Part shown: one piece after another, positions 4,094 through 24,243 of the stretch
How the letters are laid out: each line of letters opens with the position of its first letter
How positions within the stretch are numbered: the stretch's first letter is position 1
NCBI GenBank assembly: GCA_046881895.1
Contig: JBKSMR010000031.1
Span: 1-36,216, forward strand
Origin: Alphaproteobacteria bacterium
GTDB taxonomy: Bacteria; Pseudomonadota; Alphaproteobacteria; Rs-D84
Reading direction: 5' to 3'
DNA: 36,216 nt
Notes under the pieces: model-generated
What the model was told of the DNA's origin: nothing
Databases searched by the model: none
What the model saw: only the letters and a program-made list of their open reading frames with translations
Made by a program: the position numbers and the translations under genes

Positions 4094-5722
4094 ATGATAA
4101 ATTTATTTAAAAAAGTTGTGATTTGTTTCTTGGGTGTTTTTGTGTTGGTTGGTTGTGCAACCAAAGATTCTGCCAAAGTTGCAGCATCTGTAGACAAAGA
4201 TTTTGTAAACGCGTATGAGGCTTTTGAAATGGCAAAAAATCCACGTGCCAAGGTTGCCAGCGGTGATACAGTTTCGATGTCCGAAGGTGTGTGGCTTGGG
4301 AATAAGTCTGTTGTATTGGAACATCGTAATAATTTGCCTTCTCAATTTGAAACAGATACAGGCGTAACAATTTTATTAAATGAACCTGTCTCTTTACAGG
4401 TTTTGGCCAATGATATTTATTCTGCAACGGGTATTCCTGTTAAAATAGATGGTCAAATTTCGACAGAAAAACTAAAAAAGATGGTAAATGTTGCATATAC
4501 AGGAAAATTGTCCGGTTTGCTGTCTCAGGTCGCAACCGATTTAGATTTGTTGTGGTATTATGATAAAAATGCAATTGTTTTTTATGAGACAGAAACAAAA
4601 ACGTTTACATTATATGCACTGGGAACCGAAGTTGCATATCAAACAGCCGTATCGACAGATGATTCAAATGAAGTATCTTTGGAATCGACTTTGAAAGAGT
4701 GGGATGAAGTAGAACAGGCGATTTCTTCTATTATAGGTAAAAGTGATAATGCAGACTTTACGGTTTCTCGCAGTCTAGGAACAATTACTGTGACTGCATC
4801 GCCATCAGTCTTGGCGCGTGTTGGTGAATATATTGAGCGTCAAAATAAACGCTTGTCACAGCTGATTACAATCGATGTTAAAGTTTTGCAGGTTACAATT
4901 TCTAATGATTCTGCATTTGGTTTGAATTTGGCCGCTGCTATAAATTCTACGTCAGGCTTGAATATTGTTGCAAATCCAAAGAATAATTTGGCATCAACAG
5001 AGGCAAGTTCAATGAATATTGCAGTCTTGTCAAATGCTGTGTCTGCATTGACTGGTGCTACCCATACAGAAGGTAATACTACTGTTGGTGGTGCATACTC
5101 ACAAGATGATATTATGAACGGTTCTTTGTCTGGTGTCGCTGGATCTAATGCTTTGATAGAAGCGTTGGCAAAGCAGGGCAAGGTATCATTGGTTACAAAT
5201 GTAGGCGTAACAACACGTAGCAATCGTGTCGCACCAGTAAGTAATACACGTAGTACAGGTTATATCAAACGTTTCGAATCTAGAAACTTTACAACGGTTG
5301 AATCAAGTACTGTCGATCAAGATGATTTGGAAACTGGTTTCACAATGCAGTTGTTGCCAAATGTGTTAGAAAACGGCAAGATTTTATTGTTGTTCCGTAT
5401 GTCTGTTCGTGAATTGTTGCGTATGTCAACCCAGACAATTGGTGAAGTAACATTGCAGTTGCCAGAGGTTGAAGAACGTAGCTTTATGCAAGAAGTAATT
5501 ATGGAATCTGGTCAGATGTTGGTTGTTTCAGGCTTTGAAAAACAGACCAGTCAAGATACTCGCTATGGTTTGGGAGATCCTGACTTTATGGCATTGTCTG
5601 GTTCACGTGAAACATCTGCAACTCGTGAAGTATTGGTTGTTATCTTGACACCACAAGTATTGGTCAGCCCAATGGATACGGAAAGAACGATACAGCAGCA
5701 TTGGGGTGCACCTCTAAATTAA
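4094..5722 (+). CDS. Lipoprotein secretin (type IVb pilus TcpC/BfpB/PilN-like outer-membrane channel)
   Basis: The lipobox is FVLVGC followed by ATKDS. The C-terminal secretin domain reads GKVSLVTNVGVTTRSNRVAPVSNTRSTGYI...GFTMQLLPNVLENGKILLLFRMSV...GQMLVVSGFEKQTSQDTRYGLGDP...REVLVVILTPQVL. The RBS is AGGAG. Confidence 0.8.
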   Translation: MINLFKKVVICFLGVFVLVGCATKDSAKVAASVDKDFVNAYEAFEMAKNPRAKVASGDTVSMSEGVWLGNKSVVLEHRNNLPSQFETDTGVTILLNEPVSLQVLANDIYSATGIPVKIDGQISTEKLKKMVNVAYTGKLSGLLSQVATDLDLLWYYDKNAIVFYETETKTFTLYALGTEVAYQTAVSTDDSNEVSLESTLKEWDEVEQAISSIIGKSDNADFTVSRSLGTITVTASPSVLARVGEYIERQNKRLSQLITIDVKVLQVTISNDSAFGLNLAAAINSTSGLNIVANPKNNLASTEASSMNIAVLSNAVSALTGATHTEGNTTVGGAYSQDDIMNGSLSGVAGSNALIEALAKQGKVSLVTNVGVTTRSNRVAPVSNTRSTGYIKRFESRNFTTVESSTVDQDDLETGFTMQLLPNVLENGKILLLFRMSVRELLRMSTQTIGEVTLQLPEVEERSFMQEVIMESGQMLVVSGFEKQTSQDTRYGLGDPDFMALSGSRETSATREVLVVILTPQVLVSPMDTERTIQQHWGAPLN

Positions 5723-5827
5723 AATAAATTATAATAATTCATCTGTGGACGGTCCCGATGGTTCATGTAGCGTCTGTACACTACACCATCAGGACCGTTC
5801 CACATTTAAATCATTCTAATTGATTTT
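5721..5827. repeat. Palindromic intergenic element, copy 1 (conserved flanks, variable 18/19-nt stem, conserved 22-nt core)
   Basis: The left flank AAAATAAATTATAATAATTCATCT (5721-5744) is identical to 22785-22808. The arms are 5745-5762 GTGGACGGTCCCGATGGT and 5785-5803 ACCATCAGGACCGTTCCAC. The core is 5763-5784 TCATGTAGCGTCTGTACACTAC. The right flank is ATTTAAATCATTCTAATTGATTTT. Confidence 0.75.
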
Positions 5828-5845: not shown

Positions 5846-5877
5846 AAAAAAAAATTCCCCAATTGGGGAATTTTTTT
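5846..5877. terminator. Bidirectional rho-independent terminator (secretin operon / rpsT)
   Basis: AAAAAAAAATTCCCCAATTGGGGAATTTTTTT. It is a perfect palindrome with an A-tract and a T-tract, lying between convergent genes. Confidence 0.85.
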
Positions 5878-5891
5878 GTTCTGATTTTTTA

Positions 5892-22221: not shown

Positions 22222-22791
22222 ATGGCGTCTTATATTGCAAATGATATGCGTGTTGGTTGGGTGATTTCACATAATGGTAAACGTTATTCTGTTACATCTA
22301 TTACCAAGGTTAAACCAGGCAAGGGTGGTGCGTTTGTTCAGGCAGACTTGCGTGACATTGACTCTGGTAACAAAGGTGGCGACCGCTGGCGTGCAGAGGA
22401 CAAGGTTGAAAAACTGATGGTTGAAGATTTTGACTGTCAATATCTGTATGCAGACGGTACAGATGCATTCTTTATGAACTTGTCTGATTATGAACAGTTT
22501 ACAATGCCTGTTGATTCATTGGGCGAATCTATGAAATTCTTGGCACCAGAAATGATTGTAAAGGCAAACTTTGTCGAAGGTCAGCCGGTGTCTATTTCTT
22601 TGCCAAAAACAGTTATTGCAATCGTTGAAGAAACAGAGCCTGCATTAAAGGGTCAGACTGTTTCGTCCAGTGGCGGCAAACCTGCGATTTTGGATAACGG
22701 TGTTCGTGTTCAGGTTCCTTTGTTTATCGAACAAGGTGAAAAGATTGTAGTAAATACTGAAACCCTGGAATACGTCGAACGTGCAAAATAA
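22222..22791 (+). CDS. efp: Translation elongation factor P
   Basis: 189 aa. It carries VKPGKGGAFVQADLRD (the KPGKG loop) and a typical three-domain length. Its last codon and stop lie inside repeat-element copy 2. Confidence 0.95.
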   Translation: MASYIANDMRVGWVISHNGKRYSVTSITKVKPGKGGAFVQADLRDIDSGNKGGDRWRAEDKVEKLMVEDFDCQYLYADGTDAFFMNLSDYEQFTMPVDSLGESMKFLAPEMIVKANFVEGQPVSISLPKTVIAIVEETEPALKGQTVSSSGGKPAILDNGVRVQVPLFIEQGEKIVVNTETLEYVERAK

Positions 22792-22902
22792 ATTATAATA
22801 ATTCATCTAAAAACAAATCGGGAATCTCATGTAGCGTTTGTACACTACGATTCCCGATTTGTTTTTATCTAAATCATTCTAATTTATTTTTACCGCTAAT
22901 CG
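22785..22902. repeat. Palindromic intergenic element, copy 2
   Basis: The left flank at 22785-22808 is identical to 5721-5744. A perfect 18-bp stem is formed by AAAAACAAATCGGGAATC (22809-22826) and GATTCCCGATTTGTTTTT (22849-22866). The core is TCATGTAGCGTTTGTACACTAC (22827-22848). The right flank is ATCTAAATCATTCTAATTTATTTTTACCGCTAATCG. Confidence 0.8.
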
Positions 22903-23000
22903 TGAATGGTGTTGGTGGAAATCTCATGTAACGTTATGTACACTACGCCATTACCAACCCGTTTATCTATACCATTATCTTTTATTTTTTACGCTAATCA
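22903..23000. repeat. Palindromic intergenic element, copy 3 (degenerate, in tandem with copy 2)
   Basis: The core is TCATGTAACGTTATGTACACTAC (22924-22946). The arms TGAATGGTGTTGGTGG and TTACCAACCCGTTTA pair only with G-T wobbles and one bulge. The right flank is ATCTATACCATTATCTTTTATTTTTTACGCTAATCA. Confidence 0.6.
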
Positions 23001-23077
23001 CGGACAGGGGATGGCTCTTATAAATTTTGAATAATATCTATCTATCTTTAATAACACAACATAACAAAAATTTTGCC

Positions 23078-23135
23078 ACCACTAACCACCAACCACTAAC
23101 CACTAATCACCAACCACTAACCACTAATCACTAAT
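23078..23135. repeat. 7-nt tandem repeat tract, about 8 units of (T/C)AA(C/T)CAC
   Basis: CCACCAC TAACCAC CAACCAC TAACCAC TAATCAC CAACCAC TAACCAC TAATCAC TAA. It lies between the efp and fba 3' ends. Confidence 0.8.
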
Positions 23136-23146
23136 TTATTTTTTCG

Positions 23147-24088
23147 CTAATATTTGTTTTCGCTGCCCATGATGTTTTTTATTTCGTCGATACATGTTTG
23201 CGTTATTGCAATTTGTGCCTCTCTTAAATAATCGCGTGGGTTAAAGTTGTTTGGATTTTGTGCCAATGATTTGCGAATGCCAGCTGTGAAGGCTAAACGC
23301 AAATCGCTGTCTACATTTATTTTGCAAATATTCAATTTTGTTGCACGACGCAGTTGGATTTCGTCGATTCCAAGGGCGTTCGATATTTTTCCGCCAAATT
23401 CATTTATTGTTATGATTAGTTTTTGTGGAATGTTTGATGCACCATGTAATACCAAGGGAAATCCGGGTAGTTGTGTAGCGATATCTGCTAAAATGTCGAA
23501 TCGCAATTCTTCGGATGCGGTTTTGCGTTTATAGGCGCCATGACTGGTTCCGATGGCGACGGCCAATGAGTCAATATTTGTTTCTTTTACAAATTTTTCA
23601 ACATCTGCTGGATTGGTATATCCGATTGTGCCAAATGTATTTTCGTCTTCGATTCCGCCCAGTGTTCCAAGTTCGGCTTCGACAGACACGTTGTGTTTGT
23701 GTGCAAGTTCAACGACAACTTTTGAAGTTTTTATGTTTTCGTCAAAGGGCAATTTGCTGGCGTCAATCATGACGGATGAAAATCCAAGTTCGATTGCTTT
23801 TTTACAGGTGTCTATGCTTGAACCGTGGTCCAAGTGCAGGGCGATTTGTTCGTGTGGTTGAATGTTTGCACCGCGTATCATCCCAATTAACATATCGCTG
23901 CCCATATATTTTAGTGCGGATTCGGATACGGCCAGTATTATAGGACTATGTGTTTCGCGTGCAGCAGCAAGTATTGCATTCAATGTTTCCATGTTATAAA
24001 AGTTAAATGCAGGTATTGCATAGTTGCCAGCGATTGCGTCGTGAAACATTTGTTTGGTGTTTACCAGTCCCAGTTCTGTATACTTCAT
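23147..24088 (-). CDS. fba: Class II fructose-bisphosphate aldolase
   Basis: The track ORF extends to 24187. I prefer ATG 24088 (MKYTELGLVNTKQMFHDAIAGNYAIPAFNFYNMETLNAIL) after AGAGGA. Motifs are HLDHGSS, GTSHGAYK and PLVLHGAS. The stop codon is TAG. Confidence 0.88.
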   Translation of the reverse strand: MKYTELGLVNTKQMFHDAIAGNYAIPAFNFYNMETLNAILAAARETHSPIILAVSESALKYMGSDMLIGMIRGANIQPHEQIALHLDHGSSIDTCKKAIELGFSSVMIDASKLPFDENIKTSKVVVELAHKHNVSVEAELGTLGGIEDENTFGTIGYTNPADVEKFVKETNIDSLAVAIGTSHGAYKRKTASEELRFDILADIATQLPGFPLVLHGASNIPQKLIITINEFGGKISNALGIDEIQLRRATKLNICKINVDSDLRLAFTAGIRKSLAQNPNNFNPRDYLREAQIAITQTCIDEIKNIMGSENKY

Positions 24089-24243
24089 AAAAATCCTCTT
24101 TGTTGATTGGATTATAGCATATTTTGTGCATTTGTGTGTTAGTTTTTTTAGTGGCTTTCCTTGACAACTGATTAAATTTTGCAACAATTACTACGAATCG
24201 GGGGCCGGACAGAGAAAACGGTAATTTTACAAAGGGTAAAAAA

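Follow-up and report, generated by a model that had tools for sequence, protein, structure and literature searches.

What occupies the 355-nt spacer between the convergent genes efp and fba of a reduced alphaproteobacterial genome, and does it insert at, or reshape, the 3′ ends of the genes that it adjoins, as the original prediction for this locus proposed? The spacer lies in a stretch of 36,216 nucleotides (the window), which is contig C31 (JBKSMR010000031.1) of a metagenome-assembled genome (MAG; GCA_046881895.1) of Candidatus Enterousia, order Rs-D84, comprising 872,604 bp in 68 contigs with 39% G+C. We refer to this genome as G000, to the compared genomes by other G numbers, and to sequence records of relatives or loci by L numbers. 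Our preferred reading, held with about even confidence, is that the spacer is one locus of a dispersed, duplicative family of DNA palindromes confined to the Enterousia lineage (Rs-D84), which takes over the terminator slot at TAA stop codons. Literature searches did not find a repeat family of this description, and repeats are unmentioned in an account of reduced genomes from farm-animal guts that includes an Enterousia MAG in the order Rs-D84 (PMC12306168).

Hairpin units on the stop codons of leading-strand genes

To define the anatomy of the unit, we collected 101 distinct copies from G000 and its relatives. Units are 105-108 nt long and share one layout, namely, an AT-rich left flank (of two main types), ATCT, a G-rich arm, a core, the complementary arm, a second ATCT, and a right flank. 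The two arms form a GC-rich stem of 17-20 bp, the right flank pairs with the left one in an AT-rich outer stem, and the opposed ATCT motifs form a conserved bubble between the two stems. The core of 21-22 nt (CATGTAGCGTYTGTACACTAC and variants) always reads TGTA-N6-9-TACAC and provides a conserved apex, TGTA-N7-TACA with an asymmetric internal loop. The arms are wholly different between copies, and between species at one site, yet they remain complementary: 27 of the 34 predicted pairs changed on both sides (compensatory changes), and when the alignment was made on the reverse strand, 93.4% of its cells were paired, with double changes in 31 of 40 pairs. None of 500 shuffles reached the observed covariation, and slid structures came nowhere near it. 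The core pattern matched at least 17 times in G000, against no match for a reversed-pattern control.

The family extends well beyond this genome. Within the genus, a pattern search located the exact core in 16 of 37 genomes; the other genera that it sampled had none. A covariance model, whose per-genome unit counts are lower bounds, detected the repeats in 103 of the 151 Rs-D84 genomes, among them members of seven further genera of the same taxonomic family and of two genera belonging to different families of the order; 17 Enterousia genomes had no copy by this model.

At each locus, the first unit begins on the TAA stop of a leading-strand gene. Counting a unit as anchored when a same-strand open reading frame (ORF) of at least 80 codons stops 8-26 nt ahead of the inner ATCT, within the left flank, we found 38 of the 42 first or solo units of three genomes on such a stop, which bears out the part of the original prediction that tied the element to gene 3′ ends. 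TAA accounts for 37 of these 38 anchoring stops, compared with 78-81% of stops genome-wide. The efp stop carries a unit in 55 of 80 species, in a single orientation throughout and starting on the final Lys codon and TAA.

The polarity of the units follows that of replication. Their orientation equals the sign of the contig GC skew in 9 of 9 G000 contigs, and over 280 kb of G006 all 13 loci lie downstream of leading-strand genes, although 41% of the genes are on the lagging strand; the genes around these loci are convergent at seven and tandem at six. In three genomes, gidA and parB are located at the switch from minus to plus skew, which identifies the G-rich strand as the leading strand and the folding strand as the leading-strand template.

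The site taken by the first unit is, by comparison of orthologous sequences, exactly that of the ordinary bidirectional intrinsic terminator of element-free species. Where the efp and secretin sites lack the element, a classical hairpin and T-run directly follow the stop, and in L022, L033, L034, and L035, a unit alone fills an 87-98-nt spacer. Like such a terminator, the unit abuts both convergent stops, runs from an A-rich 5′ side through a GC-rich stem to a T-rich 3′ side, and alternates with the terminator at orthologous sites, but it is 4-5 times longer, is conserved in sequence at the apex and bubble, occurs repeatedly and in tandem arrays, and is polar with respect to replication. The element would persist because its hairpin and T-rich tail replace the lost terminator in both directions. 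A promoter and terminator consensus scan of the efp-fba spacer was uninformative, and besides the element itself revealed no terminator-like site.

The efp-fba spacer and the ends of its neighbors

Positions 22785-23016 of the window contain one intact unit of ~106 nt, one recombinant, and one truncated unit; the numbering of units begins with the intact copy at the secretin gene. The features are given below in order along the spacer, followed by this first copy.

22222..22791, plus strand: efp (EF-P, 189 aa), from the ORF list; its last codon AAA and the TAA (22786-22791) open the paired region of unit 2
22785..22890, minus strand: unit 2, an intact 106-nt hairpin, found as an inverted repeat and by the family model (106.8 bits on the minus strand)
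Parts of unit 2, in order: left flank AAAATAAATTATAATAATTCATCT, arm AAAAACAAATCGGGAATCT, core CATGTAGCGTTTGTACACTAC, complementary arm, right flank ATCTAAATCATTCTAATTTATTTT
22891..22924, plus strand: linker B, TACCGCTAATCGTGAATGGTGTTGGTGGAAATCT, the junction motif with a G-rich pseudo-left arm; it recurs between units in G000 contig C1 and in L021
22925..22990, plus strand: unit 3, recombinant, with core CATGTAACGTTATGTACACTAC, right arm GCCATTACCAACCCGTTT, and a type II right flank
22991..23016, plus strand: linker A, ACGCTAATCACGGACAGGGGATGGCT, the start of a truncated fourth unit without a core
23017..23077, no strand assigned: AT-rich spacer including ATCTATCTATCTTTA, not matched by the family model
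23078..23134, plus strand: heptamer tract CAC[TC]AA[CT] in 8 copies, found by Tandem Repeats Finder (TRF); a separate dispersed repeat family
23131..23151, plus strand: remnant of a right-flank end with the junction motif, CTAATTTATTTTTTCGCTAAT, holding the fba stop
23147..24187, minus strand: fba (class II fructose-bisphosphate aldolase), on the lagging strand and convergent with efp; C-terminus ...IMGSENKY*
5720..5826, minus strand: unit 1, an intact hairpin on the secretin TAA (5720-5722), with a left flank identical to that of unit 2

Unit 2 is an inverted repeat with 42-nt arms that are 88% complementary. Together with unit 3 it forms a head-to-tail pair (TRF period 98, 1.8 copies), as had been predicted for these two copies. 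The right arm of unit 3, GCCATTACCAACCCGTTT, is the arm type of another subfamily, and because the left arm is unmatched to it, unit 3 forms no hairpin. Downstream of unit 3, ACGCTAATCAC is followed by the G-rich GGACAGGGGATGGCT (22991-23016), and the core is absent. The suggestion that this segment is a decayed fourth unit gained support from the close relative L021, where an identical linker precedes a core, a right arm, and a flank, so that we interpret 22991-23016 as a truncated unit. The other local details of the original prediction were found in the sequence as described: the junction motif CTAATTTATTTTT(A/T)C(C)GCTAAT occurs at both 22880-22900 and 23131-23151; the efp TAA (with the last codon, 22786-22791) and the secretin TAA (5720-5722) lie inside the left flank, which carries TAA in two frames; and the stop of fba, CTA on the plus strand at 23147-23149 and hence TAG on the minus strand, lies inside CGCTAAT. 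The claim that the spacer is built almost entirely from this repeat proved too broad. About two thirds of its 355 nt, or ~240 bases (22792-23016 and 23131-23146), derive from the family, with the AT-rich segment at 23017-23077 and the separate heptamer repeat at 23078-23134 making up the rest. Downstream of unit 1, at ~5850-5885, there is a classical terminator.

The heptamer repeat (CACTAAC) is present at 8 loci in G000, several of them preceded by a common AT-rich leader (ATAAATAATAAAAATTATTCATT). The tract of the window is C-rich and G-poor in the plus direction, like a Rho loading site, and in a fold of the whole spacer it can pair over a long range with the pseudo-arm at 22903-22919. A second repeat family is present at L010:1580-1720 (G000 contig C3), just after a hairpin unit, and again after the unit at G000 C39:19418 (...GAACAAAAGAATAACTGTCTGCGACGCATTGGATTCCCGCCTGCGCGGGAATGACG); it contains ATTCCC-N8-GGGAAT, which we take to be the pattern of the Neisseria dRS3 repeats.

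Comparison with orthologues, the check put forward with the original prediction, does not support the replacement of C-termini or stops on the anchored side. EF-P ends in ...TETLEYVERAK*, at the same position, in 80 of 80 species, with or without the element, and the secretin ends in ...IQQHWGAPLN* in 30 of 30 genomes, which show the same alternation between element and terminator. Taking G065 as the element-free reference, 24 of 33 anchored genes end identically to their orthologue; the exceptions comprise two loci with a difference of -1, a gene family shorter by 9 residues, and some matches of low identity. We conclude from these unchanged ends that the anchored side is not reshaped, and the protein remains unaltered because the TAA of the flank coincides with that of the gene. 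The 9-residue difference concerns an anchored gene ending in ...YAQKNQK* (G000 C39 ~12570 and G083 C2 ~188700), which is the only clear candidate for shortening of a C-terminus on this side.

The free right end behaves differently, in that it can extend over the stop and final codons of a convergent gene. Across element-free spacers of 24-56 nt, fba ends in ...MGSxNKx*, and in several element-bearing species (L022, L033, L034-36, L058, L062, L065, and L088), it is 1-7 residues longer, with the stop in the right flank or in the motif that follows. In the window, fba has kept the ancestral length (ENKY*), but the TAG in the junction motif serves as its stop. Of the proposal that the element inserts at or reshapes gene 3′ ends, what survives is the association with those ends and the gain of 1-7 residues by fba on the free side in relatives. 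Overall, the element rarely changes the ends of neighboring proteins.

This bears directly on the suggested likeness to Rickettsia palindromic elements (RPEs) and Correia elements, which did not hold as membership in either. RPEs resemble the present family in being palindromic repeats of reduced alphaproteobacterial genomes that can enter coding sequence, but they insert in frame inside genes, whereas our units begin at the stop and leave anchored C-termini unchanged, adding a few codons to the convergent gene in some species. Correia elements (NEMIS/CREE) of Neisseria, and likewise ERIC/IRU of enterobacteria, are intergenic palindromes of 100-150 bp that are cotranscribed, can terminate transcription or be processed, and can change gene ends. 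Correia elements are distinguished by a TA duplication beside 26-nt terminal inverted repeats, by either orientation, and by conservation of the inverted repeats rather than of an apex; the bases flanking our units differ between ends and copies, are not TA...TA, and the orientation is single.

The strand that folds and the readings based on structure

The two strands of a unit are not equivalent. The folding energy of unit 2 is -36.4 kcal/mol on the plus strand versus -49.4 kcal/mol on the minus strand, the corresponding values for unit 1 are -35.8 and -50.7 kcal/mol, and a consensus built on 46 diverse units gave -37.8 kcal/mol for the top strand versus -56.7 kcal/mol for the bottom, C-rich strand. 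Among the same physical pairs, wobbles valid on one strand only number 133 for the C-rich strand versus 49 for the other. Within the variable arms alone, a sense-strand excess of wobbles (76 versus 47) is no greater than mutational skew could produce, and the decisive signal is carried only by the conserved outer and apical stems, where one-strand wobbles number ~100 on the C-rich strand versus 3 and where G.U, G-C, and A-U interchange at the same positions. It is on the C-rich strand, which runs antisense to the anchored gene, that pairing has been selected. In L063 (3064-3169), the unit at the efp stop has its apex reverse-complemented within normal flanks and arms, corresponding to an inversion of the hairpin tip.

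Such a signal could point to a structured RNA transcribed from the C-rich strand, either as the 3′ untranslated region or terminator of the convergent lagging-strand gene or as a small antisense RNA, with a protein bound to the apex and the tandem G.A bubble, or with the long stem cut by RNase III. The near confinement of G.U, and of its alternation with G-C, to the C-rich strand fits this explanation, as does the combination of a conserved apex sequence with variable stems, which is that of protein-bound RNA hairpins. Furthermore, read on the C-rich strand, the opposed ATCT motifs give a tandem G.A/A.G bubble; tandem G.A/A.G pairs are a common stable RNA motif. Yet roughly every second locus (6 of 13 in G006) is flanked by two co-directional leading-strand genes, leaving no gene from which the C-rich strand would be transcribed, and neither reading nor scanning of the sequence yielded a convincing promoter upstream on that strand. 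The window also has no Rfam match at the gathering score, and at E-value thresholds produces only chance matches to microRNA-like hairpins. The strand signal is no proof of RNA because G.T wobbles and G.A pairs stabilize folded single-stranded DNA (ssDNA) as well, and we consider the RNA explanation possible but unlikely.

If the folded molecule is ssDNA, the unit might be a recombination site, like an integron attC or a Xer-dependent site, used by a host recombinase, which would explain the swapping of stems, the arrays, and the anchoring on fixed sequence. Like the units, attC sites lie directly after, and often overlap, the preceding stop, are imperfect palindromes of 57-141 nt, and conserve structure rather than stem sequence. 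Four attC-like features are seen in the units, namely, the position directly after the stop, the imperfect palindrome of free stem sequence, a folding strand antisense to the gene, and its location on the leading-strand template, for which integrons set the precedent (PMC5371416). The occurrence of totally different, but matched, arm pairs at one orthologous site is also in line with such exchange. The flanks, AAAATAAATTA...TAATTTATTTT or variants, are without the AAC/GTT boxes (R′′/R′; RYYYAAC/GTTRRRY), and the conserved elements are distributed differently, the base being conserved and the apex variable in attC, whereas both are conserved in the unit. In addition, the genes that precede the units are housekeeping genes, and long efp-fba spacers contain ordinary genes rather than unit-flanked cassettes. 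No integrase signal, in a count of tyrosine recombinases without IntI-specific models, and no cassettes were detected. The high-copy genomes G094, G107, G110, G137, and G155, with 16-23 or more units, have just two tyrosine recombinases, presumably XerC and XerD, and the number of these enzymes does not track the element. We therefore regard a dedicated recombination site as distinctly improbable.

Under the preferred reading, that of a duplicative DNA palindrome in the terminator slot, uniform polarity would be a survival filter, of a kind known from integron attC sites, copies whose stabler strand falls on the single-stranded lagging-strand template having been lost.

Copying, candidate partners, and chromosomal position

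The units appear to spread and recombine as DNA. The doublet of unit 2, linker, and unit 3 is found again after clpB in G000 contig C1, with 201 of 216 bases identical, and since the same doublet follows efp and clpB, composites must have been copied between gene ends. Chimeric units like unit 3 recur in C20, C43, L001, and L026, and their composition is that expected if neighboring units recombine at the conserved core. Among the relatives, L021 and L022 are closest (efp DNA 93-94% identical) and share the unit types and linkers, which differ in order or number. After the first unit, further units follow head to tail and recombine at the core into non-hairpin chimeras such as unit 3, and we propose that the element multiplies as DNA, by recombination or through some enzyme, with stem exchange likewise proceeding as DNA.

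The obvious enzyme would be a transposase, and the family might be an ordinary miniature inverted-repeat transposable element (MITE) whose outer AT-rich inverted repeats are recognized by a transposase missing from the MAGs. It does have terminal inverted repeats (AAAATAAATTA...TAATTTATTTT) and many near-identical copies, is present or absent at orthologous sites, and coincides with contig breaks. Nevertheless, no target-site duplications were found at unit ends, and the strictly uniform orientation and anchoring on stop codons are unexpected for a cut-and-paste DDE transposase. A missing transposase is also hard to reconcile with order-wide presence in genomes of ~0.9 Mb, several of which are assembled in 1-8 contigs. 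The Y1/RAYT transposase (PF01797) was detected in only 1 of 41 Enterousia genomes, although control genomes were positive, and is absent from the element-rich G000, G006, and G083; the sole Y1 gene, of the IS200/IS605 type, is L116 (G028 C6:33971-34330), from a bin whose contamination is estimated at 3%. The one transposase-like protein detected consists of helix-turn-helix (HTH) repeats without a catalytic domain, and a search for plasmid and phage similarity returned none. Altogether, we give little credence to a MITE.

The same Y1 survey separates the family from REP/BIME/REPIN sequences. These are extragenic palindromes at gene 3′ ends, clustered, present in tens per genome, divided into stem subfamilies, and have a proposed role in termination or mRNA stability, all of which recalls the present family, but they are ~35-nt units of conserved stem sequence that cluster as inverted pairs and require a Y1 RAYT gene. 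The RAYT (Y1 HUH) gene is lacking in G000, G006, and G083, and where a REP is a 20-40-nt palindrome with a conserved stem, a 5′ GTAG, and inverted pairing, the units are 105-108 nt long with hypervariable stems and stand in head-to-tail arrays with a period of 91-105 nt; conserved apex and flanks (at ~105 nt in all), a free stem, TAA anchoring, and uniform polarity set them further apart. Derivation from IS200/IS605, as in the PATE elements, where Y1 acts and the folded strand lies on the lagging-strand template, is contradicted by the absence of Y1 and by the location of the better-folding strand on the leading-strand template.

A gene-content contrast identified 26 proteins present in G000 and G083 but missing from the element-free G065 and the examined part of G070. 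A small GIY-YIG nuclease was rejected as a partner because it showed no link to the element over 151 genomes: G004, G062, and G094 are element-rich without the nuclease, and G061, G116, and G161 have it without the element. What remains as a lead is a stand-alone protein of 204 aa (G000 contig C58:9683-10294) with four tandem transposase-type HTH repeats (HTH_Tnp_1/HTH_28), hereafter 4xHTH, which has no catalytic domain and no adjacent transposase gene and is located in different neighborhoods in G000 and G083. All 14 genomes with a strong match to it have at least 15 copies of the element; nine other high-copy genomes lack the protein, and since its carriers are the nearest relatives of G000, the correlation may reflect shared ancestry, which makes 4xHTH a candidate partner confounded by phylogeny. 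Separately, we noted a Fic-like and an AlpA-like excisionase gene with 98-99% protein identity between G000 contig C56:902-3752 and G083 C1:332263-335099; as the core proteins of the two species are only ~70% identical, this island appears to be mobile and recently exchanged.

The distribution along the chromosome brings in a further explanation, in which the units are polar sites of chromosome organization or linked to replication, with a DNA-binding protein (candidate 4xHTH) on the apex in one origin-proximal domain. In the whole genome of G083, all 17 or 18 loci are in C2:14-221 kb and C3, adjoining gidA and parB, and the other ~650 kb has none; in G000, 16 of about 22 copies are on contigs syntenic to this element-bearing arm. 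This clustering, along with the co-occurrence of 4xHTH and high copy numbers in 14 of 14 genomes, is what the explanation would lead one to expect. It does not account for the nine high-copy genomes without 4xHTH, all carriers being close to G000, nor for the element in other genera that have no 4xHTH protein, and known domain markers are short duplex sites rather than 105-nt hairpins on stop codons, so that we hold it to be highly improbable. A related possibility, to which we attach only slight weight, is that the hairpins, as folded ssDNA of the leading-strand template or as antisense RNA, are read by a dedicated host factor (4xHTH again being the candidate) and mark one origin-proximal arm, having been co-opted as terminators from a polar, structure-based signal. 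As to the skew itself, that of the replication type is essentially missing from about half of the G083 chromosome (C1:200-489 kb and C2:240-370 kb), compared with a GC skew of 0.15-0.29 in the other half; it is also weak on those G000 contigs that are syntenic to the flat half, and the element-free G065 and G070 show the ordinary two-armed pattern.

Several observations weigh against a duplicative palindrome that simply takes over terminator slots. The concentration of copies in one ~250-kb arm is not predicted by a model in which any terminator slot will do. Terminator activity of the unit is itself deduced from its sequence, and a terminator needs neither a conserved apex sequence nor a conserved ATCT bubble; the conservation of both throughout the order suggests a specific binding partner, which this reading leaves unnamed. 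On the top strand, too, the hairpin is very stable (-36 kcal/mol), and it is not obvious that a difference of 13 kcal/mol suffices for a filter acting through replication. Finally, searches for Y1 and tyrosine recombinase genes and the gene-content contrast did not identify a mobilizing enzyme.

Reduced genomes of ~0.9 Mb are expected to lose repeats, and this lineage retains tens of copies of a long palindrome positioned exactly on stop codons. The family unites three traits that known repeat families do not show in combination: the apex is conserved whereas the stems vary freely and stay paired, the units are anchored on TAA, and their polarity relative to replication is strict, the folding strand being the leading-strand template. 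The survival of long palindromes during replication, the replacement of terminators, and the occasional rewriting of a neighboring gene's final codons by intergenic repeats can all be studied here in a natural test, and in the annotation of Enterousia MAGs the family accounts for contig breaks and odd gene ends. Should the hairpins prove to be read by a host factor, they would represent a new kind of polar, structure-based chromosomal signal.

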